DNA from: an uncultured Fibrobacterota bacterium
Lineage (GTDB): Bacteria > Fibrobacterota > Fibrobacteria > Fibrobacterales > Fibrobacteraceae
Length of the DNA: 64,000 bases
NCBI GenBank assembly: GCA_903876665.1
Contig: CAIRAY010000147.1
Coordinates: 1-64,000 of the forward strand
Direction of reading: 5' to 3'
Shown: piece after piece, positions 10,672-46,532 of the stretch
How the letters are laid out: the number at the start of each line of letters is the position of its first letter
Position numbering within the stretch: the stretch's first letter is position 1
The notes under the pieces: model-generated
Seen by the model: the letters and a program-made list of their open reading frames with translations, nothing else
What the model was told of the DNA's origin: nothing
The model's database searches: none
Made by a program: the position numbers and the translations under genes

Positions 10672-10673
10672 GT

Positions 10674-11630: not shown

Positions 11631-11723
11631 AGTTTCACTTCAATGTAACAATCTGTCCATATCCTTCGCCCCTTGATCGGACAGAATGTGTATAAGGGAT
11701 GCCTAATCATCTATTTTCACAAG

Positions 11724-19637: not shown

Positions 19638-20807
19638 TTGGGCAAAAAGCACGAAAAAGCCATCTTGGTGGGTGTCGCGGTGGGGAGGACAAAGATTGTC
19701 GTTGCCCAGGAACACCTCAATGAATTGCATCGGCTGGCAGAAACAGCAGAGGCCGAGGTTGTTGCAAGCTTCATGCAACGACTGCCAAGCTATAACGCAT
19801 CTACCTTGATCGGCGAAGGCAAGGTCGCAGAAATTGCGGAAAAAGCCAAGGAGCTCGAAGTCGATCTGGTTATTTTCGATGAGGATCTTTCGGGTTCCCA
19901 GATCAAAAATTTGGAGGCCTTGCTTCCAGGAATCAAAGTACTCGACCGCACCGGAATCATCCTCGACATCTTCGCGCGACATGCCAAGACCGCCGAATCA
20001 CGCATCATGGTCGAAATCGCGCAAATGGAATACACCATGCCCCGCCTAACCCGCGCATGGACGCACCTCTGTCGCCAGGTCGGCGGCATTGGGACACGTG
20101 GCCCGGGCGAGACCCAGCTCGAAGTGGACAGGCGCTCCATCCGTACCCGAATTCAAGCCCTCAAAAAGAAACTGAAGAAGATCGAACAGGCCCGCGAAAT
20201 GCAGGCAGACCGGCGCGAAGAAGCCTTCCACATTGCCATTGTCGGCTACACCAACGCGGGAAAATCCACTCTGACCAATCGTCTCACCGGAGCAGGCGTT
20301 CTGGTCGAGGACAAACTTTTTGCGACCTTGGACTCCACCACGCGCAAACTATTCATTGCTCCCAACAAGCCGGTAATCCTTTCCGACACGGTGGGATTTA
20401 TCCGGAAACTGCCTCATCACCTGGTGCAAGCTTTCCGCAGTACCCTGGGCGTTGTGGGCACCGCGGACTGCATCCTCGAAGTCCTCGATTGTTCCGCCCC
20501 GGATTACATGGAACATATGGATGTCACGAATCATGTTCTTTCCACCTTGGTCGAGGAAAAAATTCCCCGCATCCGGGTTTTTAACAAGTCCGATGCAGCC
20601 ACTCCTGCGCGCCTGGAAGAAATCCACACCAACCACCCCGGCTCCCCCGTCATCTCGGCACTAGAAAACACGGGGCTTGACGCCCTCAAACAACAATTGA
20701 TTGCGCTTGAAATCGACTGGAAGAAAAATAGGGAAATTGAAGCCCGCGAAGCTCAAGCAAGAGCCGAAGCCCGCGAAGCCGAAGAATTCTTATATTCTTC
20801 CCTATGA
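19638..20807 (+). CDS. hflX: GTPase HflX (track start is TTG)
   Basis: HflX N-terminal domain plus G-domain motifs GYTNAGKST, DTVGF and NKSD. Confidence 0.85.
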   Translation: MGKKHEKAILVGVAVGRTKIVVAQEHLNELHRLAETAEAEVVASFMQRLPSYNASTLIGEGKVAEIAEKAKELEVDLVIFDEDLSGSQIKNLEALLPGIKVLDRTGIILDIFARHAKTAESRIMVEIAQMEYTMPRLTRAWTHLCRQVGGIGTRGPGETQLEVDRRSIRTRIQALKKKLKKIEQAREMQADRREEAFHIAIVGYTNAGKSTLTNRLTGAGVLVEDKLFATLDSTTRKLFIAPNKPVILSDTVGFIRKLPHHLVQAFRSTLGVVGTADCILEVLDCSAPDYMEHMDVTNHVLSTLVEEKIPRIRVFNKSDAATPARLEEIHTNHPGSPVISALENTGLDALKQQLIALEIDWKKNREIEAREAQARAEAREAEEFLYSSL

Positions 20808-20979
20808 GCAAAATCTTTTCGCATATTCTATCCCAATACAGTTGGAAATTTTTAGCGGTTATGTCCGCTCTTGTGCTAATTCTTTCCATCGCCAACAACC
20901 TGATCCAGCCACAGGACCGCAAGGTCGCTTGGATCGGGGGACAGGAAGTTCTGGCCAAACCGGCTCCGGAGGGTGCCGA

Positions 20980-21633
20980 ATGAAAACCATATTTTCTGCA
21001 ATTCTTCTCACCCTAGGGACCATCGTGTTTGGTTTGGGCATTTGCGAAATATCCTTTCCCGATGCGTTTTCATGGACCGAAGTGCTGTCCGGGATTTTTC
21101 CAAAGCTGTATCGCTATGGAGTTTGGATCGGCGTGGCAGAATGCACGTTCGCAACCTTGCTCGCTGTTTTCGCTTGGTTCCTGGACCGCGCCTTTGCCCG
21201 CAAAGGACTGGAAACCCTGTTCCGCCTTGGAATTGGAGGGATGTTCATCTTTGCCTCCTGGTTCAAGATTTCCGACCCCAAAGGCTTCGCGATTCTGGTC
21301 GCCCAGTATCAATTCCTTCCCCACGACCTGGTCAATATTTTCGCCCTGGTAATGCCCATGGCCGAAATCCTTTTTGGATTCGCCCTGATCTTTACTCCTT
21401 TCAACCGCGAAAGCGCGAGTATGATCTTTCTAATGTTCATCGCATTCATGGTGGCCCTTGCGAGCGCACTTTGGCGAGACCTTGGCATCACCTGCGGTTG
21501 CTTTGCCCTGGAAGGCGCGCAAGACAAATCCGAGGCTTGGACAGCCCTAATCCGTGACCTGATCCTGATTGGCCCTACCCTTTGGCTCACTAGACTCGAG
21601 AACCGCAGCCTCTGGAAAATCTGGCGTAAATAG
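20980..21633 (+). CDS. DoxX/MauE-family integral membrane protein
   Basis: Start at MKTIFSAILL; the track ORF begins earlier, inside hflX. Four or five TM helices and the CGCF motif (DLGITCGCFALEG) typical of MauE-like proteins. Confidence 0.5.
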   Translation: MKTIFSAILLTLGTIVFGLGICEISFPDAFSWTEVLSGIFPKLYRYGVWIGVAECTFATLLAVFAWFLDRAFARKGLETLFRLGIGGMFIFASWFKISDPKGFAILVAQYQFLPHDLVNIFALVMPMAEILFGFALIFTPFNRESASMIFLMFIAFMVALASALWRDLGITCGCFALEGAQDKSEAWTALIRDLILIGPTLWLTRLENRSLWKIWRK

Positions 21634-21698
21634 GGTTTTGCTCTTGCAGATTTGATCCTTTTTTGGTTTAATTGAGCAACCCTCTACAAGGAGTCCGC

Positions 21699-22796
21699 AT
21701 GGCGCTATTTGAAAAAATCATGGCTGAATTTATCGATATCATCGAATGGAACGATGATTCAGCCGACACTATCCTCTGGCGCTTCCCCCGCTTTCAGGAC
21801 GAAATCAAGAATGGCGCAAAGCTCACGGTTCGGCCTAGCCAGGTCGCGGTCTTTGTGAACGAGGGCAAAGTTGCGGACATTTTTCCTCCAGGAATGCACA
21901 CGCTCTCCACCCAAAACCTACCCGTCCTTTCCACCCTGAAAGGCTGGAAATTTGGCTTTGACAGCCCCTTCAAGGCTGAAGTTTATTTTTTGAGCACCCG
22001 GCAATTCACCGACCTGAAATGGGGCACCAAAAATCCAGTCATGATGCGCGATCAAGACTTTGGCATGGTACGCCTGCGGGCCTTCGGCTCATACGTAATC
22101 AAAGTGGATGATCCCAAAAAGGTTGTGGAGCAGGTCGCTGGAACAAACCCCGTCTTTTCCGTGGAAGACGTGCGGGAACAGCTTCGCAACATTGTGACCT
22201 CTCGTTTCGCCGACATGCTGGGATCGGCAAAAATCCCCGCCCTGGATTTGGCGGCCCGCTACGACGAACTTTCCGCTCAGTTGTCCAAACTTATTGCGGC
22301 CGAATTCAGCCAGCTTGGATTTGCCACCACCCAGGTCCTGGTCGAAAATATCTCCCTCCCCGAAGAAGTTGAAAAAGCCATTGACAAGCGTAGCAGCATG
22401 GGCGCAGTCGGCAACCTCGATCAATTCACCAAATTCCAGGCCGCAAACGCCCTGGAAGCCGCCGCCAAAAACCCCGGAGGAGGCGCCTCCGCGGGCTTAG
22501 GTTTGGGAGTCGGAATGGGAATGGCGGGACAACTTGGAGCCATCGGAGCCGCAGCCACGGCCCCCACTACATCATCTACGCCTCCACCCCTCAATGCGGG
22601 TGGCCCGCCCCCCTTGCCGCAAAAGGAATGGTGGGTTGCCGTTTCCGGACAACAAAATGGTCCGCACGATCTTTCCGGCTTGGCTTCCCTTATGGTGCAA
22701 GGCGCTATCAACCGGGAAACTCTAGCCTGGAAGCAAGGCTTCTCGGGCTGGATGCCCATGACGGCAGTGCCCGAATTGAAATCCCTTTTCGGATAA
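21699..22796 (+). CDS. SPFH/band-7 domain protein with a C-terminal DUF4339-like (GYF-like) domain
   Basis: SPFH core with a Gly/Pro-rich linker, and a C-terminal WWVAVSGQQNGPHDLSGLASLMVQGAINRETLAWKQGFSGWMPMTAVPEL. Alternative start at 21672. Confidence 0.65.
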   Translation: MALFEKIMAEFIDIIEWNDDSADTILWRFPRFQDEIKNGAKLTVRPSQVAVFVNEGKVADIFPPGMHTLSTQNLPVLSTLKGWKFGFDSPFKAEVYFLSTRQFTDLKWGTKNPVMMRDQDFGMVRLRAFGSYVIKVDDPKKVVEQVAGTNPVFSVEDVREQLRNIVTSRFADMLGSAKIPALDLAARYDELSAQLSKLIAAEFSQLGFATTQVLVENISLPEEVEKAIDKRSSMGAVGNLDQFTKFQAANALEAAAKNPGGGASAGLGLGVGMGMAGQLGAIGAAATAPTTSSTPPPLNAGGPPPLPQKEWWVAVSGQQNGPHDLSGLASLMVQGAINRETLAWKQGFSGWMPMTAVPELKSLFG

Positions 22797-22809
22797 TCCT
22801 CAGCTCCCA

Positions 22810-23481
22810 ATGAAGTGCGCAACCTGCTCCGCCCCTCTCCCACCGAACAAGTCCCGCTGTCAATATTGCGGAACGGTTACCGATGTGGACCTGAGCGGTA
22901 AACATCATTTCACGACCAACCAGCCCACCACGCCTAGGCCCTGCTGTGGATGTGGCAAAATCATGGCCACGGTCAATGTGGGAACGGAAGACGCCCCCTT
23001 TTACATCGAACGTTGCAGTGATTGCCTCGGTCTTTTTTTCGATCCAGGCGAGCTGGATTCCTTTGTGGATCACACCATCCGCTCGGTATTTTCGATCAAC
23101 CAACTGGCCCTCGCGAGCATGTCCAACGTGAGTTCCTCCGAAGTTGTCCGTTATCGCAAGTGCCCCGTCTGCTCTAAACTGATGAACCGGATCAACTTTG
23201 GAAAGAGCAGTGGCGTGATTGTGGACCAGTGCCAGGACCATGGCATTTATTTGGATGCAGGCGAGCTACACCGAATTTTAGCTTGGGTACGCCTGGGTGG
23301 CAAACTTCGCGCGCAAGCCAACACCGATGCAGAAACCGAAGCGGCTTCGCGAACCGTTGCTCAGGCACGAAAGTATTTGGATCAACCCTCTTCGACCTAT
23401 CAGCCAGGAATGGAGAATGCCCCCGAAACCATGGTTTCCAAGGTCACAGACTTTTTGATAAAAATTATGGGAAATACCTGA
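22810..23481 (+). CDS. Zinc-ribbon protein with two TFIIB-type zinc-ribbon modules (zf-TFIIB-like)
   Basis: CATCSAPL...CQYCG; CCGCGKIMATVNVGTEDAPFYIERCSDCLGLFFDPGELDSF; and CPVCSKLMNRINFGKSSGVIVDQCQDHGIYLDAGELHRIL. Confidence 0.6.
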   Translation: MKCATCSAPLPPNKSRCQYCGTVTDVDLSGKHHFTTNQPTTPRPCCGCGKIMATVNVGTEDAPFYIERCSDCLGLFFDPGELDSFVDHTIRSVFSINQLALASMSNVSSSEVVRYRKCPVCSKLMNRINFGKSSGVIVDQCQDHGIYLDAGELHRILAWVRLGGKLRAQANTDAETEAASRTVAQARKYLDQPSSTYQPGMENAPETMVSKVTDFLIKIMGNT

Positions 23482-23541: not shown

Positions 23542-24705
23542 CTACCCTAACAACCAGGCTTTGATTCGCACAATGTCAAAGGGCTTTTCAAACAAGGAAA
23601 TCCCTTTCAATTGTAGAACCCGGGTGTCCATTTCGATGGCATACCCCGTCATCAGGGCGATGCGGGTCTGGGGGGAAACCTGGCGGATAAACTCACAGAG
23701 AGCAAGGCCATCTTCCGCCCCAAGATGCTGGTCCACCAAAATAGACTTTATGCGTAATCCCGAATCCAGGATCGATTTAACTTCATCTCCACAGGAGCAG
23801 GCCCGAAAGGGGATGAGGGCTCCCCGGATAAGCTCCGACAATAAATCCCGCACTCCGGCCTCGTCATCCACCACGACCACCAAATCCCCGGTAGCCTCAG
23901 GCAGCTCGGGTAGAATGTTGTCGGAATGAAGTAAGGCTAAATTTTCTTCGTCGACTTCCATCTCCCGCGCCTTGTACATGGTGAGCGGGAACAAAAGACG
24001 GATCCGGGCGGTTTGACCCCCTACCCTTTCCAAAGCCACGACTCCGCCCATGATTTCCAGGAACTCGCGTACCACCATGATTCCCGCGGATTCGATTTCG
24101 TTGGTGGTTCCGGAAATCACCCGTTGAAGAATCTCCCAGTCGATACGGTCGTCGGAACTGACCAGGTCCAGGGCAAGCACCGTTTCGGGAGCTTTTTGGC
24201 CCAGGCGGGCAGAAAAATTGGAAGTGCGGATGGTGAGATTTCCGCCCTTGGGAAGGACATCGCGGGCAAGCACCAACAGGTGAAGAACGATGCCCTGGAA
24301 TAGATTCGGGTCACCGGTGATCCAGGCCGTGCTCGCCCCCAGATCCCAGGTAATCCGGTATCGGCCAGGCATGGTGACTTCGGTGATTCCCTGCAGCTCT
24401 TCCAAGAGCATGTGGGCATCGATCAAGGTTACCTGACGGCGATCCTTTCGGGTAAAAATTTTGAGACGATCCACCATCTCGGCGGCTCTGGAGCAGGAAG
24501 CCAGGATCACCTCCGAATAACGAAGCACTTCGGGCTCAAGCCCTCCAAACCGACGACGTAACAATTCGGCGTAGCCACTAATGGCGGAGAGAGCATTATT
24601 GAAATCATGGGCCATGCCCGAAGCGAGGAGGCCCAGCGCCTGTTGCTTGCGGGCCAAAAGCAAATCCCGTTCGAGCCGTAAAATCCGTTCGTCGCGAAGA
24701 TTCAT
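23542..24705 (-). CDS. Cytoplasmic hybrid sensor histidine kinase / response regulator lacking any N-terminal sensor domain (DHp, a partly degenerate ATPase domain, and REC)
   Basis: H-box MAHDFNNALSAISGYAELL, a CA-domain remnant (ESAGIMVVREFLEIMGGVVALE), and a receiver domain with VVVVDDEAG...D...K. No TM or PAS domains. It is the last gene of the ABC operon. Confidence 0.75.
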   Translation of the reverse strand: MNLRDERILRLERDLLLARKQQALGLLASGMAHDFNNALSAISGYAELLRRRFGGLEPEVLRYSEVILASCSRAAEMVDRLKIFTRKDRRQVTLIDAHMLLEELQGITEVTMPGRYRITWDLGASTAWITGDPNLFQGIVLHLLVLARDVLPKGGNLTIRTSNFSARLGQKAPETVLALDLVSSDDRIDWEILQRVISGTTNEIESAGIMVVREFLEIMGGVVALERVGGQTARIRLLFPLTMYKAREMEVDEENLALLHSDNILPELPEATGDLVVVVDDEAGVRDLLSELIRGALIPFRACSCGDEVKSILDSGLRIKSILVDQHLGAEDGLALCEFIRQVSPQTRIALMTGYAIEMDTRVLQLKGISLFEKPFDIVRIKAWLLG

Positions 24706-24708
24706 TTT

Positions 24709-26937
24709 TTACCCCTTGACAGCACCACCGGTCAGGCCGGAAACAATGTGGCGTTGCATCAAAAAGAAAAGCACCATAACCGGAAGCGTGGCAACCGTGG
24801 CTGCCGCCATCAACAAATCGAAGCGATTGCCAAATTGCCCCACATACAAACGGATACCAACCGGAATGGTTGCCGTGGAGGTATCCGTGCAAAGAACCCA
24901 GGCGAACATCAGTTCGTCCCAAGCAAGAAGAAACACGTAAATGCCAGTCGCCACAATTCCGGGCAGGGCCGCAGGAATGGTAATGCGTATAAACGCCCCA
25001 AAAGGAGAACACCCATCAATCATGGCGGCCTCCTCCAGCTCACGTGGGATGCTCGCAAAGAATCCACGCAGGATCCAGGTAGACATGGGAATAAAAAAGG
25101 CTGAATACACGAGGATGATTCCATGCCAAGTATTCACCATTTCAATCATAACATACTGCTGAATGGTGGTAAACAAGATAAAAATAGGAATCAAATACAA
25201 AATTCCTGGAACCATTTGCGTCGCAAGGATCGTCATGCTTAGCAACCGTTTTCCCGGAAACTCAAAGCGCACAATGGCGTAGCTTGCCAAAGCAGCCACC
25301 AGCACGGAAATAAACATGACGCTCAGGCAAATGACCAGGGAATTGCGCAGGAAACGACCAAAGGGAATGGTCTTCCACAGGTCCTCATAATTTCGCCAAT
25401 GTAGCTGGAAACGCCCTTCGGGAACCTGCTGATGCCAATAGGTCCGATGACTGGAACGATCAATGCTCGAGGCGAATCCAAACAACCCCCCCAGCCGAAG
25501 AACTCCAGCATCGCTCTTGATGGTATGGACCACCGCATCGGTGGCCTCATGAGTAGAATTCGATTCAAAAACCTTGGAATAAAGGAGAATTGGAATCTCA
25601 TTTTCGGAGGCATCTTCCGGGGCATTGACCCAGTCCATTTTATCGACGACTAGCACACCTTCGGAGGTCCCAATGAAGGCGCTGACCGAATCCACTTCCA
25701 GAGCGGTTATGTCGGAGGTAATGGAGCGAAACATAGGCATGGCCAAGGATTTTCCTTCTCCACGCCGGAAATTGAAAGCCATCACCTCTTGTCCATAACC
25801 CAGGAGAATATTTGCCGAGTCCAACCTCGCCACAGTGACATCGCGCCCATCCAAATACTTAAGTCCGTATTCCCCAAAAAGAAAAGTTGCGGAAACTTTG
25901 TGTGCAACGACATCGACCAAATTAAGGCCCGCATCGGTAATCGCCAAAACTTCCCGGTCGCTGATGCGAACCAGGTGCTGAATGGCGGTGGAAGATAGCC
26001 CATGTTGGGCTGTGATCCAACGGACGGAGCCGGTTTTGGGATCGAGAACTCCGACCCCCGGAAAGTCATCCCACCAGAGCGCAAAACAGATTTGCCCGTT
26101 CCCGCAAGGAGTGATGCTGGTCCCGTGGCCTGAACCGGGAATTCTGTTGACCCAGACATCGGTCCATGGCACCTGGAGGAAGCGAGAAATATTTCCAGGA
26201 AATCTCTCTGCCAAGCACCAACGGAAAAGCTCCCGGTCCTTTTGAGGAGTGCGTTCCTGCTTGTAAAGCCAGGGAATCACGGGATTGAACCAAGAAGGAA
26301 CTTTTTTCCATTCCTCAAGAGTTTTGGCGAGCATGACTTGATCAAGCAAAATCCGGTTCAGGGAATCGAGAAGGGAAGCGTCCCTGGAAAAGCGGATTCC
26401 TGTCACCTCGGAAAGGCTTGCACCTTCGTTGGCTTCCACCAGGGGGTCCCGGTTAAACTGATCCGCAGCCGCACCATACTCTCGCGCAAAAATTTCGCCC
26501 GGTAATTCCATAAAGGGAGTAAAATCGGTCGCTTCAAAACGCTCCTGAATTTCCCCCCAATCCCAATGCTTGGTTTCTTGCCAGGCGGCAAGATCCACCA
26601 ACGAAATCCCCCCATCGGCACTGGCCACCCAAAGGTCCTGACCGTTGCGAGAATATGAGGTGGACTGATATCCTAAATTCAGGTAGCGGGGTTCGTCCTT
26701 AGGCCGTTCCAGACTATACAGATAAAGTTCACCATTCACTGTACCCGCAAGCATTCCAAGACCAGGAACCGAGTCTGCTAGGAATACATCGTTCCTCTGA
26801 AGGTCCGGCAGAGTCTTTCCTTGCAAGATTTCATTATTGCCCATCAAAGAACACCAAACCATCCAAAGAATGGGAAATGCATTCAAGGCAACAAAGATCC
26901 ATGTAAGCGGAGTCCAAAGGAATCTGGATTTATCCAT
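24709..26937 (-). CDS. Carbohydrate ABC transporter permease (MalG/UgpE-like) carrying a periplasmic domain of about 450 aa inserted after TM1
   Basis: The C-terminal 270 aa have the EAAMIDGCSPF (EAA) motif and the MalG TM pattern. The N-terminus has one TM helix (TWIFVALNAFPILWMVWCSL) followed by a long soluble beta-rich domain. Confidence 0.8.
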   Translation of the reverse strand: MDKSRFLWTPLTWIFVALNAFPILWMVWCSLMGNNEILQGKTLPDLQRNDVFLADSVPGLGMLAGTVNGELYLYSLERPKDEPRYLNLGYQSTSYSRNGQDLWVASADGGISLVDLAAWQETKHWDWGEIQERFEATDFTPFMELPGEIFAREYGAAADQFNRDPLVEANEGASLSEVTGIRFSRDASLLDSLNRILLDQVMLAKTLEEWKKVPSWFNPVIPWLYKQERTPQKDRELFRWCLAERFPGNISRFLQVPWTDVWVNRIPGSGHGTSITPCGNGQICFALWWDDFPGVGVLDPKTGSVRWITAQHGLSSTAIQHLVRISDREVLAITDAGLNLVDVVAHKVSATFLFGEYGLKYLDGRDVTVARLDSANILLGYGQEVMAFNFRRGEGKSLAMPMFRSITSDITALEVDSVSAFIGTSEGVLVVDKMDWVNAPEDASENEIPILLYSKVFESNSTHEATDAVVHTIKSDAGVLRLGGLFGFASSIDRSSHRTYWHQQVPEGRFQLHWRNYEDLWKTIPFGRFLRNSLVICLSVMFISVLVAALASYAIVRFEFPGKRLLSMTILATQMVPGILYLIPIFILFTTIQQYVMIEMVNTWHGIILVYSAFFIPMSTWILRGFFASIPRELEEAAMIDGCSPFGAFIRITIPAALPGIVATGIYVFLLAWDELMFAWVLCTDTSTATIPVGIRLYVGQFGNRFDLLMAAATVATLPVMVLFFLMQRHIVSGLTGGAVKG

Positions 26938-27925
26938 TACTCAGGTCCTCCCGGAAGCGGCGATACCAGAGCATCACCACCACCATCATGACCACCATGA
27001 GCATGGAGGACATGGCCGCGCCCACTCCAAAATTCCACATCTGGAAGGAATTGCGGAAGATATTCGGCATCAGCAAATCACCATACTTTCCCGGAAACCC
27101 TGCTCCATTTCCAAACATCATGCTGACGATATTGAAGGAATACACATTGGTGATCAGGCCCTGCAAGACGATCATTGCGATCACTGGCCGCAAAAGTGGC
27201 AAGGTAATATGAAAGAACTGTTCGGATTTTTTGGCTCCATCCATGGCTGCGGCCTCGTAAATTTCTTTGGGGATCGAAGAAAGGCCCGCCAGGAACATCA
27301 CCATGGCAAAGGGCCAAAATCTCCACACCGTTGGAATTACAATGGCCCATAGAGTATTTTCGCCAGTCAGCCAACGGGGTTTAATCAGATTCCCAATCGC
27401 ATCATAATCCCAATGCACCCCAATCCAAGAGGTCATTACATCCAAATGCATCCGGTCAAAAAGCAGTTGATTGACGATCCCCTCCTCCTGCTGCCACATG
27501 AATCCCCAAAGCATTCCCACCACATAGGAAGGAATGATCCAGGAGAACAGCAACAAGGTCCTGGCCACCGCACGACCCTTGAAATTCCGGTGCACCAAAA
27601 GCGCTCCTCCGATTCCCAGGAGGATCGTTCCCCCAGTCACAAAAACCGTATAGAGAATGGTATTGCGGATGGCATCGAAAAGCCCCTGACGGATTTGGCT
27701 ATCGCTGGAAAAGAGAATTTGTTTGTAATTCTCGAAACCCACGAAGGGTGCATGAAGATACTGCTCAATGGTTGACTTGTTGGATTCGAGCATGGAGAGC
27801 ACAAGCCCTTGCACAATGGGGAACACATGCAAAAACAGCAACCCGAGAACTGCGGGCGCAACGAACAACAAAGGAACCTTGTATGCAGACCAGACATCTC
27901 TCCTCATTGGTGCCCCCTGCGCCAT
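26930..27925 (-). CDS. Carbohydrate ABC transporter permease (MalF/UgpA-like)
   Basis: EAA motif IYEAAAMDGAKKSEQFFHITLP and a 6-TM pattern. Confidence 0.85.
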   Translation of the reverse strand: MAQGAPMRRDVWSAYKVPLLFVAPAVLGLLFLHVFPIVQGLVLSMLESNKSTIEQYLHAPFVGFENYKQILFSSDSQIRQGLFDAIRNTILYTVFVTGGTILLGIGGALLVHRNFKGRAVARTLLLFSWIIPSYVVGMLWGFMWQQEEGIVNQLLFDRMHLDVMTSWIGVHWDYDAIGNLIKPRWLTGENTLWAIVIPTVWRFWPFAMVMFLAGLSSIPKEIYEAAAMDGAKKSEQFFHITLPLLRPVIAMIVLQGLITNVYSFNIVSMMFGNGAGFPGKYGDLLMPNIFRNSFQMWNFGVGAAMSSMLMVVMMVVVMLWYRRFREDLSNG

Positions 27926-29304
27926 GAAACCAAGCGGTCGCGGAGGCCAGGGGCCTGATCGAGCTGTTGCTGGATATAATGGCTGATTTCAACATCCGTC
28001 GCTTGAATTTCTTCGATGATCTTGGTTTCGGGCCATTCTCCCGGCTTGGTTGCCGTGATCAAATCAAAAATATTCCCGAAACGCCGGGTTAGAATGGTGG
28101 TTTCGATTTCGCCCCAATAATGCACAGAAGGATAAGGCTGCCCTTGGCGCACCATGCGTAAGAAAACCTGCCGGTTGGGATTCTCGCGAAAATAAGGCAT
28201 GTCGTAGGTTTGGATCAGCGTGGGCAGAAATCCCGAGGCCCGGCTCATTTGCAACTGGACATCGGGGCGGGCCACCAAATATTCCAGGAGCTTCATGGCT
28301 TCGGCCTTGTGCTTGGAAAAGCGGAAGATGGCCAAATTGGAACCGCCCACAAAGTACCGCGAATTTCCATTGGGCGAGGTGGGTGGCATCATGCAGGCAT
28401 AATTGCGGGCCGCTGCGGATTTGCCCGTTCCGCCCAGGAATTGAGGACGATCGAGGTAAATTGATTTGGTTGTTGCGTCCAACCAAAAGGCCAGGCGACC
28501 TTCGTCAAAATCCGAACTCACTTGAGCGGTATTCTTTTCCAGGTTTCGGACTTCATTGAATCCTTGGCGAACCAGGCCTAGGTAAAAAAGGATTCCTCGA
28601 ATGGACTCGGGCCTTCCAATCGCGCTTTTAGTGGCTGTCGAATCCAGGAAGTCACCTCCGGCGCCCCAAATCCAGGGAGCCATGTTGTGAATAACATTCC
28701 AGTCATTTTTTCCGGGATAGCCCATGGCTTGAATGACATTGCCTTCCACAACCGGCTTGGAATTGTGGATACCTGTAAGCACCTTTGAGAATTGACCCCA
28801 AGTGCGAATGCTATCGGGTTGAACTCCCATTTTGGCTAATACATCTTTACGATAAAAAAGAGGCCTTACGTCAACGAACCAAGGCAAGGAGGTCACGCTA
28901 TCGGATGCCCTGGGGCGGGCAGATTCCATCCCGGCCTCCACGAATAAATCTTCGCCTCCCATTCCCTGCAGCACGGAATCCAAAGAAACCAAAGCTCCCA
29001 TCTCTGTAACGGCTGCGGTCCAGGTGGACCCCAATTGCAAAATGTCGGGACCGCTTTTGGCTGTTGCGGCAGTAGTGATTTTGGTCCAGGCACTTCCCCA
29101 GTCCAGTACGGTAACTTCGACCTCTATGCCAGGATGTTCCAACTTGAATCCCTTGATCAGCTTTTCCATGTCACGCTGGGGATCGGGAAAATTGGGAAGC
29201 ACCCAAATGGAAACCTTAGTCTGCCCGGTTGGGGCGTCCGGGGCACACGAAAAAAGCAAAAAGAAACCTAAACAGAAAGCAATGCGCAGGAATCCCGACA
29301 ACAC
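27904..29304 (-). CDS. Extracellular solute-binding lipoprotein of a sugar ABC transporter. The preferred start is GTG at 29304, immediately after the ATPase stop; the track ORF to 29451 overlaps the ATPase gene.
   Basis: Lipobox FLLFSC and an SBP family-1-like fold (KVSIWVLPNF...ILQLGSTW). Confidence 0.75.
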   Translation of the reverse strand: MLSGFLRIAFCLGFFLLFSCAPDAPTGQTKVSIWVLPNFPDPQRDMEKLIKGFKLEHPGIEVEVTVLDWGSAWTKITTAATAKSGPDILQLGSTWTAAVTEMGALVSLDSVLQGMGGEDLFVEAGMESARPRASDSVTSLPWFVDVRPLFYRKDVLAKMGVQPDSIRTWGQFSKVLTGIHNSKPVVEGNVIQAMGYPGKNDWNVIHNMAPWIWGAGGDFLDSTATKSAIGRPESIRGILFYLGLVRQGFNEVRNLEKNTAQVSSDFDEGRLAFWLDATTKSIYLDRPQFLGGTGKSAAARNYACMMPPTSPNGNSRYFVGGSNLAIFRFSKHKAEAMKLLEYLVARPDVQLQMSRASGFLPTLIQTYDMPYFRENPNRQVFLRMVRQGQPYPSVHYWGEIETTILTRRFGNIFDLITATKPGEWPETKIIEEIQATDVEISHYIQQQLDQAPGLRDRLVSWRRGHQ

Positions 29305-29306
29305 GG

Positions 29307-30407
29307 CTACCCCCCGGTTCCCGCAAGACGCAGACCGGTTGCAGGATCGAACCAGTGGAGGTGATTTTCCACCGGGGCCAAGAACACATGTTCGCCCACC
29401 TCGGGTACGCGAGACTCTTGAATTCGGACAATAAATGTCACTTCGCCACAACCCACATAGACCAAGGTTTCAAAACCTAAGGGTTCGACCACCTGAACCA
29501 CGGCGGGAATGGAAAAGGCGGACTCACTGGAAAAGGCAAGGTGTTCGGGCCGGATGCCCATGCGAACACCAGGCAAGCCCTGGGTGGCGGCGAGCATGGA
29601 GGGCGTGGGATGCAACACAACCTCGGTCCCACAAATTTTCATCGTTTTGTCCACCACATCCAAAGTCACGAAATTCATGGGTGGAGAACCGATGAAGGCC
29701 CCCACATATTCATTTCCGGGGTGGTTGTACATTTCCATGGGACTTCCGATTTGCTGGGTGCGGCCACCCTGCATGCAAACAATCCGGTCGCCCATGGTCA
29801 TGGCTTCGATTTGGTCGTGGGTCACATAAATCATGGTGGTCTGCAAGCGACCATGCAATTTTCCGAGTTCCACCCGCATTTGTGCGCGCATGTTGGCATC
29901 TAAATTGGATAGAGGCTCGTCAAAAAGAAATACGCGGGGCTTGCGCACGATCGCGCGACCGAGAGCCACCCGTTGACGCTCTCCACCCGAGAGGTGCCGG
30001 GGTTTACGCTCCAGCATGGGCCGGATGCCCAAGGTTTCTGCGGCTTCAAGCACACGAGCATCGATTTCGCCCTTGGTCATGCGCCGGGCAAGCTTGAGGC
30101 CAAATTCTAAATTTTCACGCACGGTCATGTGAGGGTAAAGCGCATAGCTTTGAAAGACCATGGCGATATCGCGATCTTTTGGATCAAGATTGTTGCAGAG
30201 TTGTCCGCCAATCCAGACCTCGCCCTCGGTTGGGGCTTCGAGGCCTGCGATCATCCGCAACACGGTGGATTTCCCGCATCCCGAATGACCCACCAGAACT
30301 ACGAATTCGGATTCAGCCACATCCAGGCAAAAGTTTTCCACCGCCGGAGTATTAGCTCCCGGGTAGGTCTTATAAAGATGTTTGAGCGAAACAGAAATCG
30401 CAGTCAT
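29307..30407 (-). CDS. ABC transporter ATP-binding protein, MalK/UgpC/MsmX-like sugar importer ATPase
   Basis: Walker A GHSGCGKST, signature LSGGERQR, Walker B VFLFDEP, and a C-terminal MalK-like regulatory domain. Confidence 0.9.
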   Translation of the reverse strand: MTAISVSLKHLYKTYPGANTPAVENFCLDVAESEFVVLVGHSGCGKSTVLRMIAGLEAPTEGEVWIGGQLCNNLDPKDRDIAMVFQSYALYPHMTVRENLEFGLKLARRMTKGEIDARVLEAAETLGIRPMLERKPRHLSGGERQRVALGRAIVRKPRVFLFDEPLSNLDANMRAQMRVELGKLHGRLQTTMIYVTHDQIEAMTMGDRIVCMQGGRTQQIGSPMEMYNHPGNEYVGAFIGSPPMNFVTLDVVDKTMKICGTEVVLHPTPSMLAATQGLPGVRMGIRPEHLAFSSESAFSIPAVVQVVEPLGFETLVYVGCGEVTFIVRIQESRVPEVGEHVFLAPVENHLHWFDPATGLRLAGTGG

Positions 30408-30531
30408 GGGAAAAATATAGCTTAGTGCACCGTGCAGAATAGGTGATAATTAGGGAGTCGCAGGGCAAAGGCATTGCCGGGCACCCTGCGGTAATCCCCC
30501 CTTCGGGGGACGACAATCCAAGTATACCCGG

Positions 30532-31011
30532 CTATGCGGCCTTGGGCTTGACCTTCTCGATATCGAACAGCTTGCGCCATGGCTCCATCTTGAAGCGGTT
30601 TCGGACTTCTCCCGCCACGATGGTCTGATAGGAAATGGCTACCAGCATGGCATCGGGAAGGTTGTTGATCCGCTTCACAAAGTTGCTGCTGGATACGCCT
30701 GGTTCCTGCAAATCGACCACAAAGGTATCCCATTCATCCAGGTCCATCACCTTGATTGCCTCTTCCACCGAGCGCACGGACTTGATCGTTGCACCGGCCA
30801 GGAGGTCCTCGAGAACTTCAATGGTGAGAGCCCGATGGGAGTCATCCAATTCCAGCACCAGGACCTTGCGGCTCGAGTAATCGTGCGGGATCAAAGCAGA
30901 ATCGATGGCGGATTCGGGAGCTGCCTGGTCCAGGATCTCGTCATCAAAGTCATCTAAATTGTCGTCGTCATTTTCTTCGATCTTTTTGCGGGCCATAGAG
31001 CCTCCATTCAT
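30532..31011 (-). CDS. Single-domain response-regulator receiver-like protein with an acidic N-terminal tail (orphan REC)
   Basis: KVLVLELDDSHRA...FVVDL...AISYQ, a CheY-like alpha/beta pattern. Its start overlaps the pepP stop by 4 bp. Confidence 0.5.
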   Translation of the reverse strand: MNGGSMARKKIEENDDDNLDDFDDEILDQAAPESAIDSALIPHDYSSRKVLVLELDDSHRALTIEVLEDLLAGATIKSVRSVEEAIKVMDLDEWDTFVVDLQEPGVSSSNFVKRINNLPDAMLVAISYQTIVAGEVRNRFKMEPWRKLFDIEKVKPKAA

Positions 31012-34528: not shown

Positions 34529-34864
34529 CTACTGGATCGAGAGCCCAAATTGCGCGAAGCTGTCTTCCAGAGCCTTCTCAAGTTGAGCCAGCAAAGCCTG
34601 AGGATCCGCCTCGAGCTTGCCTCCGGCATATTTTTCCAAGTCGCCAGCGAGGGTCCCCGCCAAAATGAATCTCATGTTGCGGCAGGCGCCTTTGAGGGAA
34701 TGGGCCAAGAAAAGGATTTCCTCCTTGGAACCATTGCTAGAAATTAAATCACGAAGTTGCGGGAGGGTATCCTTGGCATAACCTTTTAGATCGCCCAAAA
34801 ATTCGGTGTAATCCTCCTCGGAAATTCCTAGTTCTTCGAGCGCGACATTTTTATTGACAAGCAT
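34529..34864 (-). CDS. Histidine phosphotransfer (Hpt) domain protein
   Basis: 111 aa with the AHSLKGACRNM motif (HxLKG) within a four-helix pattern. Confidence 0.65.
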   Translation of the reverse strand: MLVNKNVALEELGISEEDYTEFLGDLKGYAKDTLPQLRDLISSNGSKEEILFLAHSLKGACRNMRFILAGTLAGDLEKYAGGKLEADPQALLAQLEKALEDSFAQFGLSIQ

Positions 34865-37306: not shown

Positions 37307-38294
37307 CTATTGTTTCATGCGGACGCGCCGGTATGCTTCATCGGCCTGCAATGAATCACCCGCATTGAAAAAGGCGTTGCCCACATTTTCTGCGCCAATG
37401 CGACCTTGGGTGCTTCCGAGCTTCCAAGCCTGGATAAAGTGCTCCAAGGCCTCGGGGTAACGGGTCTGATCAAAATAAATTTGACCCAAATCCACCTGCA
37501 AATCCCGGTCTGGGGGAGCTCCCTGGGGAGAAAGACCTTGTTCTAAAGTAAATATGGACATCCAAGGTGAACCTTGATCTACATACAGACTTGCCAAGTG
37601 TCGACGTGCCATCTGATTGCCTGGATTTAAAAGCAGGCCATCTTCCAAGGCCGATATTCCTTGGGGAATCGAATCCCTCTGCAATTGCAGATAGGCCAGG
37701 TAAAAAAAGGCATCGGCCCCTGCAGCAGGAGTGAGCTGAATCGCCTGACGCAAAACGCGGACGGCCTCGGAATAGTCTTCCAATTTTTCCTGAATCTCGG
37801 CCAAGGCATACCAGCAGTCAATCCGGTCCTGATTAAGCTTTAAAACCTGCTCATATTCCTTTTGCGCCAGAGTATGTTCGCCCAATTGCCGATAGCATTC
37901 GGCCATGGCGTAGTGCAAGTGTTCCGAGCCTTCTCCCAGCTCCCGCGCCCGTTTGTAGGAGGCAATGGCCAGACCATAATCGGCGTGAGTAAAGTACAGG
38001 TCACCGAGCAATAGCCAAGGCCTCACAAACTTGGGCGCAAGCTCTGCAGAACGGCGATAAGCCACCATGGCAATATTGTTCTTCCCAATTTGAACCAGTG
38101 AATTGCCCAAATTGAACCAGGCAAATGGCTCGAATTGACCCTCCGCAATAGCGGCCCGGTAGTACTTGATCGCCTCCAGGTATTTTGCCTGGTCGTAGAG
38201 CTGATTGCCCTGTACAAAGAAATCCTGTTTCGCCTGCGCAAGAGCGACACAGGAAACCAGCAAGAGGAATATTTTGCACCAAAGGTTTCGCATA
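37307..38294 (-). CDS. Secreted TPR-repeat protein (start at MRNLWCKIF...)
   Basis: Signal peptide, then multiple 34-residue TPR units (AxxYYRxAIxxxP patterns). Confidence 0.75.
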
Positions 38295-38966
38295 TTAATA
38301 CCCTTGGTCAAACACGAATTCTTTGGTGAATTTCTGTGCAACGGGAACATCTTTTATGCGCGCAGGTTCAAACCGGTATTGTCGCACGGCTTTTTCGGCT
38401 TCTATTTCGAAGCCATATCCGGCCGGATCCACCGAAAGCAGCTGCAGGTCCGCAACCTGGCCCCGCGCATCGATCACCAGATAGAATTTGGCGTAGCCTG
38501 TCACCCCTTCCCGCTTGGCCCGAGCTGGGTAGGCCACTTCCACTTCCTTGATCACCCGGGCAGCCTGATCCACTTCGCTCGGATCAAACACCTCGGCTCC
38601 AGGACCACCTCCGCCAAGTGCTCCGAAGGGACCACCATTGCCCGTACCCACCCCGACGCCCCCGCTTCCTTCTCCGCCCGAGGCGAGGGACAGGTCCATC
38701 TGAAATCCACGGGCTGGCCCGCCAGCCATTGCGCGCGAAGGCTTGAATGACTTTGATGTGCGCGACATTTGCCGGATGATCTTTTTTTGTGTGTCATGAG
38801 GGCGGATTTTTGGATTGATATCCACCTGGGTGCTGGTAGTCCCTGTTTTGTATTCGTGCTTGGGAGGTTTCACCAGCAAGGCGCTGGCCAACGGAACCAC
38901 AACAAAAATTGCAGCGTTTAAAATTCCCGACAGGATAATCAGGAGCATCCAGCGCAGAATTGTCAT
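38295..38966 (-). CDS. tonB: TonB-family energy transducer
   Basis: N-terminal TM anchor, a Pro/Gly-rich spacer, and a C-terminal TonB_C-like domain (VAYPARAKREGVTGYAKFYLVIDARGQV). Confidence 0.75.
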   Translation of the reverse strand: MTILRWMLLIILSGILNAAIFVVVPLASALLVKPPKHEYKTGTTSTQVDINPKIRPHDTQKKIIRQMSRTSKSFKPSRAMAGGPARGFQMDLSLASGGEGSGGVGVGTGNGGPFGALGGGGPGAEVFDPSEVDQAARVIKEVEVAYPARAKREGVTGYAKFYLVIDARGQVADLQLLSVDPAGYGFEIEAEKAVRQYRFEPARIKDVPVAQKFTKEFVFDQGY

Positions 38967-39385
38967 TGCGAAGATTCCTTATCCTTTTCTGCAGAAATGG
39001 AAACCTTGGAAACCTTGGCAACATTGCATTCGTCCAGAACATCCACAATGCGCCCCGAGGGCGAATCACGGTCCGCCACGATGATGACCGGGCGATCCGG
39101 GGTCTCGGCCACCAGCTGCCGAAGAATGGTGCGCAAGCTCGCCATATTCACTTGAGTCTGATTGATATGCACAGTGCCCTGACGGGTGATTCCGATCAAG
39201 ATGCTTTCCTTGGAAAGCTCACGGGCCGTGCTTGCATGAGGCTTGGTAACATCAATTCCGGTATCACGGTTAAAAGTCGAGGTGGTCACAAAGAAGATCA
39301 GGAGCACAAGCATCACATCGATCAAGTTGACCACATTAATTTCGATGGCTTTGGATTCGCGTTTCCGCTTTAAAAAAGTACTCAT
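38963..39385 (-). CDS. exbD: Biopolymer transport protein ExbD/TolR
   Basis: 140 aa with a single TM helix, an INVVNLIDVMLVLLIFF segment and a periplasmic domain. Confidence 0.85.
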   Translation of the reverse strand: MSTFLKRKRESKAIEINVVNLIDVMLVLLIFFVTTSTFNRDTGIDVTKPHASTARELSKESILIGITRQGTVHINQTQVNMASLRTILRQLVAETPDRPVIIVADRDSPSGRIVDVLDECNVAKVSKVSISAEKDKESSQ

Positions 39386-40026: not shown

Positions 40027-40033
40027 TGGGCAA

Positions 40034-42288: not shown

Positions 42289-42371
42289 AGGACGGAAAAA
42301 TACAAAACAAAAGACCCCCATGGCACTGCCACAGGGATCAGAAAGGATATTGTAAAGACTAAAAAGAAATT

Positions 42372-46211: not shown

Positions 46212-46532
46212 TTGAGAACTCCATTGGAGGGTTGGTGGAAACTTAAGTGGAAATATAAGAAGGATCAAGGGAAAACAGATCAATCAAATCGTGGATAATC
46301 GGGTATTTCCTAAGTCCGCTAATGGTAATCTCTACAAATAATCCGATATATTGACAATATAGAGAATCTTTAAATGTACCTTCACAAACAGAGTATTTGC
46401 GTATAAAAAACGATAAAAACCCCAATATTTGCAATAATTTGATATTTTTTAATATTCTTCGTACCTTTTGATTAGTACAAAAAATCCTCTTTGCGGGTTG
46501 ATGAATGCAAAAATTCTGGCTATATTCCCAAA

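Follow-up and report, generated by a model that had tools for sequence, protein, structure and literature searches.

On the minus strand of the window (the whole 64,000-nucleotide stretch under analysis, from an uncultured Fibrobacterota bacterium), the genes of a sugar ABC importer run directly into a gene for a kinase-like protein, and one of the importer's two permeases carries an exceptionally large insertion in its first periplasmic loop. The question raised by this locus is what the insertion does, and in particular whether it serves the importer itself or reports substrate or transport status to the kinase-like protein, as a preliminary description of the DNA had proposed.

The importer operon and its probable substrate

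The five open reading frames on which that description was based were all found, co-oriented and in the order given there: a MalK/UgpC-type ATPase, a lipoprotein solute-binding protein, a MalF-like permease, a 742-aa MalG-like permease and a HisKA-REC protein (Table 1). Its account of abutting or overlapping junctions could likewise be read from the sequence, the ATPase stop codon (TAG, 29309-29307) being separated by a 2 nt spacer from the GTG start of the binding-protein gene at 29304, the MalF-like and MalG-like genes overlapping by 8 nt, and the TAA stop of the latter being followed after 3 nt by the ATG of the kinase-like gene at 24705. The single revision concerns the MalF-like gene, for which an ATG at 27907 is more likely to be the start than the 27925 originally listed, since it would share an ATGA with the stop codon of the binding-protein gene and so match the 4-nt overlaps present in relatives. 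A scan for promoters and terminators inside the operon returned none above shuffled expectation, and the operon contains no gene for a cognate DNA-binding regulator.

Table 1. Positions of the operon genes and of their domains within the window
Feature	Position	Strand	Evidence and remarks
Small first gene, 159 aa	30532..31011	-	Acidic N-terminus and divergent receiver-like fold; weak Response_reg match (E 0.0037)
MalK/UgpC-type ABC ATPase, 366 aa	29307..30407	-	ABC_tran, OB_MalK, TOBE_2 (Pfam); UgpC (NCBIfam)
Family-1 solute-binding lipoprotein	27904..29304	-	SBP_bac_1 (E 2.7e-28), SBP_bac_8; GTG start
MalF/UgpA-like permease, 331 aa from 27925	26930..27925	-	BPD_transp_1; EAA motif
MalG-like permease, 742 aa, giant insertion in periplasmic loop P1	24709..26937	-	BPD_transp_1 at residues 549-734 only
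Permease TM1, residues 5-32	26842..26925	-	AF2 helix; hydropathy; invariant P22, W25, M26, W28, S30
Periplasmic insertion, residues 33-525 (493 aa)	25363..26841	-	Seven-bladed beta-propeller and helical subdomain (AF2)
Propeller blades 1-2, residues 51-125	26563-26787	-	AF2
Helical subdomain between blades 2 and 3, residues 127-245 (~120 aa)	26203..26559	-	AF2; alignment
Propeller blades 3-7, residues 273-504	25426-26121	-	AF2
MalG/SugB-type 5-TM core	24712..25362	-	EAA motif ELEEAAMIDGCSPFGAFIRITIP; NF008231; Foldseek
Cytoplasmic pseudo-histidine-kinase and receiver, 387 aa	23542..24705	-	HisKA (E 2.7e-12), Response_reg (E 2.2e-11); no HATPase_c
DHp, residues ~10-95	24421-24678	-	His33 at 24607-24609
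Degenerate CA-like domain, residues ~96-250	23956-24420	-	N, G1 and G2 boxes absent
Receiver, residues 274-387	23545-23886	-	Asp281, Asp325 (23731-23733), Thr353, Lys374

Orthologues of the small first gene (44-62% identity) immediately precede the ATPase gene in loci L001, L002, L004, L007, L010-L016 and L018-L021; Asp100 is invariant within VVD-x-x-E-P, as is K147-L-F at the position where receivers carry K-P-F. Elsewhere in the window, a standalone Hpt protein is encoded at 34529-34864, for which tblastn returned no orthologues in the retrieved loci, few of which reach that far, and the presence of Fib_succ_major and DUF4423 genes agrees with placement of the DNA in the Fibrobacterota.

The ATPase was matched by ABC_tran (E 2.4e-34) and by NF008653 UgpC (455 bits against a cut-off of 432), its Walker A (GHSGCGKST), Q-loop, LSGGE signature (LSGGERQ), Walker B (FLFDEP) and H-loop (VTHD) are intact, and its C-terminus is an OB_MalK/TOBE_2 regulatory domain of the MalK type. 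The signal peptide of the binding protein terminates in a lipobox-like LFSC, and both PF00528 permeases contain the EAA coupling motif (EIYEAAAMDG and ELEEAAMIDG), the MalF-like permease having no P2-type periplasmic domain. As judged by these family and motif matches, the operon is shown to encode the complete and intact set of parts predicted for a type I (CUT1, MalFGK2-like) carbohydrate importer.

The best solved relatives of the binding protein are the beta-glucoside-binding protein of T. thermophilus (E 2.6e-90) and CbpB of C. thermocellum (E 1.1e-78). Crystal structure 7C68 contains cellotetraose (PMC10318527); F. succinogenes lives on cellulose products only and has a CbpB-like binding protein proposed as its cellodextrin receptor (PMC3079729), detection of which was limited to growth on microcrystalline cellulose (PMC4619616). 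A CBM30/CBM11 protein is also encoded in the locus of one of the shorter sister permeases described below. Homology at moderate identity suggests that the importer's substrates are most likely beta-glucoside oligosaccharides, cellodextrins foremost, the same binding-protein family including binders of other beta-glucosides (sophoro-oligosaccharides, Lin1841).

The insertion in the MalG-like permease

Structure prediction, which the preliminary description had put forward as a check on the permease, yielded an alignment-based AF2 model (mean pLDDT 80.4) comprising TM1, a propeller of 7 x 4 strands with a helical insert, and the MalG core. Foldseek searches with the model matched the core to SugB (8ja7_B) and MalG (3puv_G) and the insert to propellers including the BT4663 sensor, the latter matches being generic for seven-bladed propellers, and NCBIfam NF008231 aligned the core to MalG positions 80-296. 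Lys3 and Arg5 fit a cytoplasmic N-terminus. Set against the canonical MalG plan of six transmembrane helices and a first periplasmic loop of ~50 aa, TM1 and the five-helix core are both present, but the P1 loop extends to 493 aa. The insertion, originally described as a beta-rich domain of about 450 aa, spans residues 33-525 and is not beta-rich throughout, the model showing a seven-bladed propeller together with the helical subdomain, which terminates in an invariant LFRWC-x-x-E motif (RELFRWCLAERFP in the window). The 742-aa protein is thus of the MalG type but has acquired a new accessory domain.

Homologues of the insert formed 21 clusters, of which 20 are full-length (711-755 aa), contain PF00528 and cover the insert completely (100%) at identities down to 34%, while the remaining cluster, P0013, is a 365-aa fragment. 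Alignment of the 20 full-length sequences revealed many invariant insert residues. A genome scan returned 14 loci, all assigned to Fibrobacter, Fibrobacteraceae or Fibrobacteres, with F. intestinalis matched and F. succinogenes S85 not returned; all named homologues are from the Fibrobacterota, the cultured F. intestinalis among them. Overall, the architecture is conserved across more than 20 loci, far more than chance would allow, and the giant P1 insertion first noted in the window is confirmed as a real domain, with the same architecture in ~20 homologues of 723-755 aa. A sister family of propeller permeases of 517-645 aa (~22 short-variant clusters) has no helical subdomain and matches the insert profile at positions 1-100 and 250-492 only; a homologue search with the propeller of one such variant (P0100) as the query returned only itself.

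Searches of the insert against Pfam and NCBIfam gave no family at E <= 0.01, with scattered weak propeller matches at E <= 1, and Pfam Reg_prop (PF07494) did not reach threshold in the insert of the window protein. Among seven members of the insert family, Reg_prop was matched weakly in one (E 0.022) and PorZ_N_b_propeller in two (E 0.012). An HMM profile of the insert, searched against 1.84 billion proteins, reached Reg_prop + Y_Y_Y proteins carrying HisKA/HATPase_c or SpoIIE at E 1e-13 to 1e-4. On this profile and model evidence, the predicted propeller shares a superfamily with the glycan-sensing periplasmic propellers found in hybrid two-component systems. The propellers of Reg_prop/Y_Y_Y sensors and of PorZ bind glycans (PMC5121618, PMC8545088). 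With the Bacteroides sensors BT4663 (4a2l) and BT4673 (3ott) and with PorZ, the insert shares the beta-propeller fold and relatedness at the profile level; the sensors differ in having tandem propellers, a Y_Y_Y domain and a transmembrane segment leading to the kinase, the propellers lying N-terminal to that kinase, whereas here a single propeller without Y_Y_Y lies inside a transporter loop and is followed by the MalG core. Glycan binding by Reg_prop-type sensor propellers was reportedly described by Lowe et al. in 2012.

The kinase-like protein behind the permease

The 387-aa product of the last gene has no transmembrane segment and no sensor domain of its own, and His33, within AHDFNN, is invariant in the alignment of its orthologues, as are Asp281, Asp325 and Lys374 of the receiver, in which Thr353 lies within a FATGUY-like LMTGY motif. 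The ATP-binding boxes N, G1 and G2 are missing from all orthologues: His and Leu stand in place of the Asn residues of the N box, SSDDRID in place of the DxGxG of G1 and ESAGIMV in place of the GxGxGL of G2, and PF02518 (HATPase_c) is absent both from the window protein and from all 11 orthologue clusters. The degenerate ATP-binding domain suspected at the outset in this sensor-less, soluble HisKA-REC protein is therefore upheld, and a normal ATP-binding domain, which would have told against the preliminary description, was found in none of these clusters.

The best solved relative is the DHp-CA portion of CckA (5idj, E 1.5e-44), and residues 114-172 gave a weak match to Pfam HPTransfase PF10090 (18.3 bits against a cut-off of 22.9, E 0.002). 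The protein derives from a CckA-like hybrid kinase and, we infer, has lost the capacity to bind ATP; with the ATP boxes lost and His33, Asp325 and Lys374 kept, it would thus be a pseudo-kinase of the ChpT/Spo0B type. ChpT provides a precedent for a pseudo-histidine-kinase acting as a phosphotransferase (PMC9981736). Like ChpT of Caulobacter and Brucella and like Spo0B, the protein appears to combine a DHp domain bearing a phospho-accepting His with a CA-like domain devoid of ATP motifs (PMC9981736); unlike them, it carries a complete, fused receiver of the CckA type, is closer in sequence to CckA than to ChpT, and is encoded in a sugar-importer operon.

In all eight loci for which context was available, the pseudo-kinase gene lies directly after the permease gene, at a spacing of -4 to +6 nt in seven of them (a 4-nt overlap in L006, 2-nt gaps in L023 and L025) and of 259 nt as called in L024. 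No orthologues were found in other contexts by a word-indexed search, which may miss divergent ones in genomes whose propeller operons have no such gene. The pseudo-kinase is limited to one clade, the operons that have it appearing by identity to form a single clade, and its open reading frame remains full-length down to 36% identity. Zn-ribbon, Band_7/GYF and MauE genes downstream of it are also syntenic in several loci, so that the adjacency is in part inherited, while in L023 the flank differs and a 1874-aa gene follows the pseudo-kinase.

By way of contrast, most propeller operons (L001, L002, L007, L010-L016, L018-L020) have no downstream HisKA-REC gene, and in these the invariant residues of the propeller are unchanged; the propeller is therefore older and more broadly distributed than the pseudo-kinase. 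Its occurrence across the phylum without the pseudo-kinase means that it must have a role intrinsic to the transporter, and the suggestion that its purpose is to feed the kinase-like protein is not supported. Given the position of the pseudo-kinase gene directly after the permease gene in all eight loci, the lack of orthologues found elsewhere and the superfamily of the propeller, the pseudo-kinase may plausibly have a regulatory role linked to the transporter.

Proposed role of the propeller and its alternatives

The explanation as a whole, which we place slightly on the probable side of even, is that of a cellodextrin-type importer with a propeller acting on the periplasmic side of transport and, in one clade, an ATP-blind phosphotransfer protein tied to the importer. 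The importer would be the CUT1-type (MalFGK2-like) system of the Fibrobacterota for cellodextrins, and the propeller would provide a platform on which the lipoprotein binding protein docks or is retained, a site at which the oligosaccharide chain is captured, or both, in effect a much larger functional counterpart of MalF P2. This role in the transport cycle is suggested by the location of the propeller, the corresponding loop of E. coli MalG being one that makes contact with the binding protein, and by the retention of the domain in operons without the signalling gene; the P1 loop of MalG and the P2 loop of MalF both touch MalE (PMC6906923). One clade has gained a gene for a CckA-derived protein directly after the permease gene. 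Presumably unable to autophosphorylate, the protein may act as a phosphotransfer or phosphatase node between His33, Asp325 and outside partners, and its production, possibly also its activity, would be tied to the importer, connecting cellodextrin uptake to a phosphorelay.

The subunit set and domain order are those of E. coli MalFGK2-MalE and mycobacterial LpqY-SugABC, on whose MalG and SugB the core superposes, and like MalF (PMC6906923) one permease has an extra periplasmic domain beside the binding-protein docking site. In MalFGK2, however, that domain is the Ig-like MalF P2 of ~180 aa, whereas here it is a propeller with a helical subdomain (~490 aa) in P1 of the MalG-type permease, and the binding protein, unlike MalE, is of the beta-glucoside/cellodextrin type. 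A glycan-sensor-type propeller of this size in the binding-protein-facing loop was not seen in any of the described type I ABC importers that were found, and the literature searched contained nothing relevant on a propeller-bearing ABC permease.

It is unlikely that the propeller is instead a glycan sensor whose state, or that of the transport cycle, is relayed through the permease or the ATPase to the HisKA-REC protein, altering the output of a phosphorelay. Such trigger-transporter sensing would accord with the superfamily of the propeller, that of periplasmic sensor domains in hybrid two-component systems, with a pseudo-kinase that lacks its own sensor and has been seen solely behind the propeller permease (eight of eight loci, mostly at the spacing given above), and with the MalK-type regulatory domain of the ATPase. 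The equivalent domain of E. coli MalK binds regulators, namely MalT and EIIAGlc. Yet many operons, those of the genus Fibrobacter included, have the propeller without a HisKA-REC gene, from which it follows that the propeller did not evolve for a relay; the pseudo-kinase has no membrane anchor with which to reach the permease and, having no ATP-binding motifs, no phospho-signal of its own; and the operon does not encode the DNA-binding regulator that would be its cognate output.

Transporter-dependent sensing has precedents in BceAB-BceS, PstSCAB-PhoU-PhoR and DctA-DcuS, and sugar-binding proteins act as co-sensors in ChvE-VirA and CBP-ChiS. BceAB-BceS resembles the present locus in placing a kinase-family protein without a sensor domain beside an ABC transporter with a large extracytoplasmic domain in its permease, but that permease is a non-importer of the FtsX/MacB type, its kinase is active and membrane-embedded, and an adjacent OmpR-type regulator completes the module, whereas here a BPD_transp_1 type I importer is accompanied by a soluble protein that lacks the ATP-binding motifs, and its operon has no DNA-binding regulator. 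LpqB-MtrAB, ChvE-VirA and CBP-ChiS similarly tie an extracytoplasmic propeller or sugar-binding protein to two-component signalling, but do so through separate proteins that contact an active membrane kinase, whereas here a cytoplasmic kinase-like protein is found with a propeller that is built into the permease. The link between an extracytoplasmic propeller and two-component signalling is documented for LpqB with MtrAB (PMC13068155).

A specific scheme for the importer as a phosphorelay input, in which the propeller would report substrate, the pseudo-kinase would dock on the cytoplasmic face (for example on the MalK-type domain) and transport would gate His33/Asp325 phosphotransfer with partners such as the Hpt protein at 34529-34864 or the receiver-like product of the first gene, is distinctly doubtful; if true, it would represent a new form of transporter-coupled signalling in which a transporter controls a phosphotransferase instead of a kinase. 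It is also rather improbable that the propeller is a periplasmic enzyme that trims cellodextrins or an envelope-spanning adaptor to outer-membrane or periplasmic cellulolytic machinery: families of glycoside hydrolases, lyases and CBMs gave no match to the insert, in which a conserved catalytic acid/base pair could not be identified, and its closest sequence relatives are the non-catalytic Reg_prop sensor and PorZ-type propellers.

That the HisKA-REC gene is a decaying hybrid kinase, retained by synteny as an unrelated neighbour, would explain its restriction to one clade, the shared synteny of the genes downstream and the degeneracy of its CA domain. This is very improbable, in that the gene is not decaying, with its length and the four residues His33, Asp281, Asp325 and Lys374 preserved down to 36% identity; it lies on the same strand as the permease gene and abuts it even where the flanks differ (L023); and orthologues in other contexts did not turn up in the word-indexed search. 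That the 742-aa open reading frame is an assembly or frameshift artefact joining a periplasmic gene to a MalG gene, as might be suspected from its uncommon length and from one source in which a 711-aa gene is called instead, has practically no probability and was ruled out, TM1, propeller and MalG core being continuous in ~20 clusters from independent assemblies and in ~22 short-variant clusters, and the TM1 ahead of the insert being conserved and needed for the six-TM topology of MalG.

The explanation favoured here, a propeller acting on the periplasmic side of a cellodextrin importer, bears on the physiology of a phylum in which Fibrobacter is among the most effective degraders of cellulose and the passage of cellodextrins through the envelope is unresolved (PMC3079729, PMC6851124). 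For the inner-membrane step, the operon offers a concrete candidate that is present across the phylum. Should the propeller turn out to hold the sugar chain or to tether the binding protein, the accessory domains known from ABC importers would no longer be confined to MalF P2 and fused binding domains, and a handle for the engineering of cellodextrin uptake would become available. A ChpT-like protein recruited to a nutrient importer could, in turn, reveal how phosphorelays come to be linked to the activity of a transporter.

Organisation and probable substrate of the importer operon

Five head-to-tail ORFs, occupying 23542-30407 on the minus strand, were assigned by Pfam and NCBIfam models, and junctions read from the sequence confirmed the five-gene operon set out in the preliminary description. 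The ATPase gene ends with TAG, followed after 2 nt by the GTG start of the binding-protein gene at 29304, the genes for the MalF- and MalG-like subunits overlap by 8 nt, and the MalG stop codon (TAA) is separated by 3 nt from the ATG of the last gene. A single amendment concerned the start of the MalF-like gene, more probably located at 27907, with the ATGA overlap found in relatives, than at 27925 as initially proposed. Promoter and terminator scans detected no signals inside the operon above shuffled expectation.

Features of the importer operon and of other genes in the window
Feature	Position	Strand	Length	Characteristics
1548-aa protein	59-4705	minus	1548 aa	RCC1 repeats, bacterial Ig domain, TSP3 repeats
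Zn-ribbon (TFIIB-type), Band_7/SPFH-GYF and MauE-like membrane protein genes	21672-23481, 20701-21633	plus		Convergent to operon
Pseudo-kinase	23542-24705	minus	387 aa	HisKA + Response_reg, no HATPase_c
Long permease	24709-26937	minus	742 aa	Sole Pfam match BPD_transp_1 at residues 549-734; aligns with MalG model positions 80-296
MalF/UgpA-like BPD_transp_1 permease	26930-27925	minus	331 aa	Pfam/NCBIfam
Family-1 solute-binding protein	27904-29304	minus	466 aa	Pfam/NCBIfam
ABC ATPase, UgpC/MalK type	29307-30407	minus	366 aa	OB_MalK/TOBE_2 regulatory domain; UgpC subfamily model above cut-off
Spacer, small first gene to ATPase	30408-30531	minus	124 nt	G+C-rich hairpin CCCCCGAAGGGGGG, no T-run
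Small first gene	30532-31011	minus	159 aa	Directly upstream of ATPase
Standalone Hpt protein	34529-34864	minus	111 aa	PF01627, E 1.1e-9; HSLKG motif
TPR, TonB_C, ExbD, ExbB, DUF3450-ExbB fusion (490 aa) and DUF3450 proteins	37307-42321	minus		7-12 kb from importer
Two DUF4423 proteins and a 704-aa Fib_succ_major-domain protein	46491-47372, 47369-49483, 53339-54184	plus		

The encoded transporter exhibited every defining feature of a type I CUT1 importer that was tested. Its binding protein, with a signal peptide ending in the lipoprotein-like LFSC, has CbpB of Clostridium thermocellum among its best solved relatives (E 1.1e-78), the sophoro-oligosaccharide binder Lin1841 being more distant; another solved relative, 7C68, is a cellotetraose complex (PMC10318527). 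The CbpB-like Fisuc_0617 (FSU_1047) was named as a candidate cellodextrin receptor in the genome paper for F. succinogenes, an organism able to use cellulose products only (PMC3079729), and the binding protein of the window is likely to be a putative orthologue of that candidate. Proteomic studies detected FSU_1047 on microcrystalline cellulose only (PMC4619616), and recorded it as slightly up on cellulose (PMC6851124). The operon can thus be assigned with good confidence as encoding a beta-glucoside/cellodextrin importer. Its neighbours are housekeeping genes (leuCD, an M24 peptidase gene, hflX and guaA), not a CAZyme cluster.

Across the family, the core operon consists of a small first gene followed by those for the ATPase, the binding protein, MalF and the long MalG. 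The small gene occupies first position in most relatives (44-62% identity), and is kept also in Fibrobacter loci devoid of the pseudo-kinase gene; in several relatives it abuts or overlaps the ATPase gene, as opposed to the 124-nt spacer in the window. Its product combines an acidic N-terminus with a divergent receiver-like core, in which Asp100, followed by x-x-E/x-P, and K147-L-F (K-P-F in receivers) are invariant, while neither the beta1 acidic pair nor the beta4 Thr/Ser is conserved. The protein may represent a single-domain receiver of atypical type, or else a pseudo-receiver, associated with the importer.

For F. succinogenes, raised levels on cellulose have been reported of TonB/ExbBD/TPR proteins similar to those of the 37307-42321 cluster (PMC6851124). 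The large 1548-aa product is probably secreted or located at the surface. DUF4423 and Fib_succ_major are hallmark paralogous families of Fibrobacter, and their genes mark the window as DNA of an uncultured representative of the same phylum; two ORFs of 847 and 404 aa near these genes gave no Pfam match.

The long permease and its propeller

When the insert alone (residues 33-525, in periplasmic loop P1) was used as the query, 21 protein clusters were recovered, all but one fragment being 711-755 aa in length and carrying PF00528, and homology spanned the entire insert at identities down to 34%. TM1, insert and core were collinear in a 20-sequence alignment, with dozens of invariant insert residues including the motifs LFRWC-x-x-E, WV-x-x-x-P, WW-x-x-FPG and W-x-T-x-x-x-GL. 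In a genome scan, each of the 14 loci recovered bore the name Fibrobacter, Fibrobacteraceae or Fibrobacteres, and the cultured Fibrobacter intestinalis ATCC 43854 was among them. The giant MalG insertion first noticed in the sequence is consequently real: so conserved a collinear architecture among homologues excludes a frameshift, an assembly artefact or a mis-joined gene. One source offers a 711-aa call starting inside the gene, which would drop the conserved TM1, and the 742-aa reading is therefore the right one.

An AlphaFold2 model built on the same alignment (mean pLDDT 80.4; insert mostly 75-94, two loops falling to 58-65) placed TM1 at residues 5-32 and predicted a propeller of seven four-stranded blades, with a helical subdomain (127-245) interposed between blades 1-2 (51-125) and blades 3-7 (273-504), and five further TM helices with the EAA motif after the insert. 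In E. coli MalG, the TM1-TM2 loop (P1) is periplasmic; the positively charged N-terminus of the long permease and the RFEFPGKR that follows TM2 fit this topology, and it is in P1 that the subunit departs from canonical MalG.

An HMM profile prepared from seven inserts and searched against 1.84 billion representative proteins matched three kinds of protein: the long permeases themselves, about 22 clusters of 517-645 aa, and proteins of 900-1400 aa which Pfam identified as Reg_prop + Y_Y_Y sensor kinases or SpoIIE phosphatases (E 4.8e-13 to 1e-4). The propeller is thus related by profile to Reg_prop proteins; since the insert sequences themselves gave no above-threshold match to the Pfam Reg_prop model, it was placed within the superfamily and outside the Pfam family. 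The 517-645-aa proteins, whose MalG core is 41-64% identical to that of the window permease, matched the propeller and not the helical subdomain, and constitute a sister permease family (P0090, P0093, P0100 and other clusters; L022 3844-5781) with a propeller devoid of that subdomain. One such locus continues with 889-aa and 663-aa proteins lacking Pfam matches and a CBM30/CBM11 protein. In the literature searched, no ABC importer permease with a propeller was described, and reviews present MalF P2 as the unique large periplasmic extension (PMC6906923).

The kinase-like product of the last gene

Orthologues of the 387-aa product formed 11 clusters (36-100% identity), all with HisKA and Response_reg and none with HATPase_c, the next-best matches (~28% identity) being ordinary PAS-HisKA-HATPase_c-REC hybrid kinases; the best solved relative was CckA (5idj, E 1.5e-44). 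Alignment of the orthologues with two canonical kinases and CckA demonstrated that His and Leu stand in place of the N-box asparagines (VLHLLVLARDVLPKGG versus VMNLAVNARDAV), SSDDRID in place of the G1 box DxGxG and ESAGIMV in place of the G2 box GxGxGL, with no variation at His33, Asp281, Asp325 or Lys374. In the receiver, an LMTGY sequence resembles the FATGUY motif that has been described from intermediate receivers of the CckA type (PMC9981736). No TM segment was present, the single hydrophobic stretch falling within the CA-like domain. The original suspicion of a TM-less pseudo-kinase was accordingly well founded.

Judged by these residues, the chemistry for His-Asp transfer is kept and that for ATP use lost, which places the protein, apart from its fused receiver, among pseudo-histidine-kinases such as ChpT and Spo0B (PMC9981736); it is very likely to be ATP-blind. 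It lacks the ATP-binding features that define histidine kinases, and, although predicted to work in the manner of ChpT and Spo0B, it scores below the ChpT Pfam cut-off.

Linkage and proposed roles of propeller and pseudo-kinase

The distribution of the two elements was established from a tblastn matrix over 21 loci, gene tables and two further look-ups. Only the window and homologous loci L004, L005, L006, L008, L023, L024 and L025 contained the pseudo-kinase gene, their permeases being the nearest to that of the window (at least 54% full-length identity); it was absent from L001, L002, L007, L010-L016 and L018-L020, genus Fibrobacter included. Where present, the gene was always directly 3' of the permease gene; seven loci showed spacings from a 4-nt overlap to a 6-nt gap, and L024, as called, a spacing of 259 nt. 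Neither the loci nor the orthologue search contained an orthologue in another gene context.

These data bear directly on the earlier proposal that the permease senses on behalf of the kinase-like protein. Because the propeller is also present in operons without the pseudo-kinase, it cannot have evolved as the sensor for that protein and must have a role intrinsic to the transporter. The pseudo-kinase, for its part, is operon-specific. For the pseudo-kinase-bearing clade, trigger-transporter sensing is possible but unlikely. Any likeness to Bce-type transporter/kinase modules is superficial, as none of the defining Bce features tested was found.

The roles proposed here draw on sequence, predicted fold and gene context. 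All parts of a CUT1 importer are intact in the window, the binding protein is of the cellodextrin type, and P1 of the MalG-type subunit contains a propeller. MalE of E. coli is in contact with the MalG P1 loop and the MalF P2 domain throughout the cycle (PMC6906923), and the MalF-like subunit of the window has no P2 domain. Given also the glycan-binding superfamily and invariant Trp-rich motifs, the predicted propeller is best read as a periplasmic platform; at the entrance to the translocation path it would retain the lipoprotein that binds the substrate, the oligosaccharide chain, or both, a docking or capture role advanced tentatively. An enzymatic or envelope-bridging role for the propeller is possible but unlikely.

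Adjacency of permease and pseudo-kinase is partly inherited synteny, because conservation in several loci extends to the downstream Zn-ribbon, Band_7/GYF and MauE genes. These downstream genes are syntenic with the operon in L004, L005 and L024; in L002 and L003, both without the pseudo-kinase gene, the MauE gene directly follows that of the permease, a pattern suggesting the gain or loss, in one piece, of a block that includes the pseudo-kinase gene. A merely coincidental neighbour with no connection to the importer is nevertheless improbable, since specificity to this operon argues for a functional tie.

Two further signalling genes were recorded. The Hpt gene lies on the same strand as the operon and four genes upstream of it, between a UbiA gene and leuC, and its product might partner the pseudo-kinase in a phosphorelay; tblastn found no Hpt homologue in the other loci, few of which reach that far. 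In L007, a relative without the pseudo-kinase gene, a sigma-54-dependent NtrC-type response regulator (10217-11683, minus strand) is convergent on the long permease, a proximity that may be coincidental.

The functional tie favoured here might extend to a direct regulatory link between pseudo-kinase and transporter, a suggestion made with some reserve. The pseudo-kinase, produced in step with the importer, would most likely shuttle or remove phosphoryl groups within a relay that has both its kinase and its output elsewhere.
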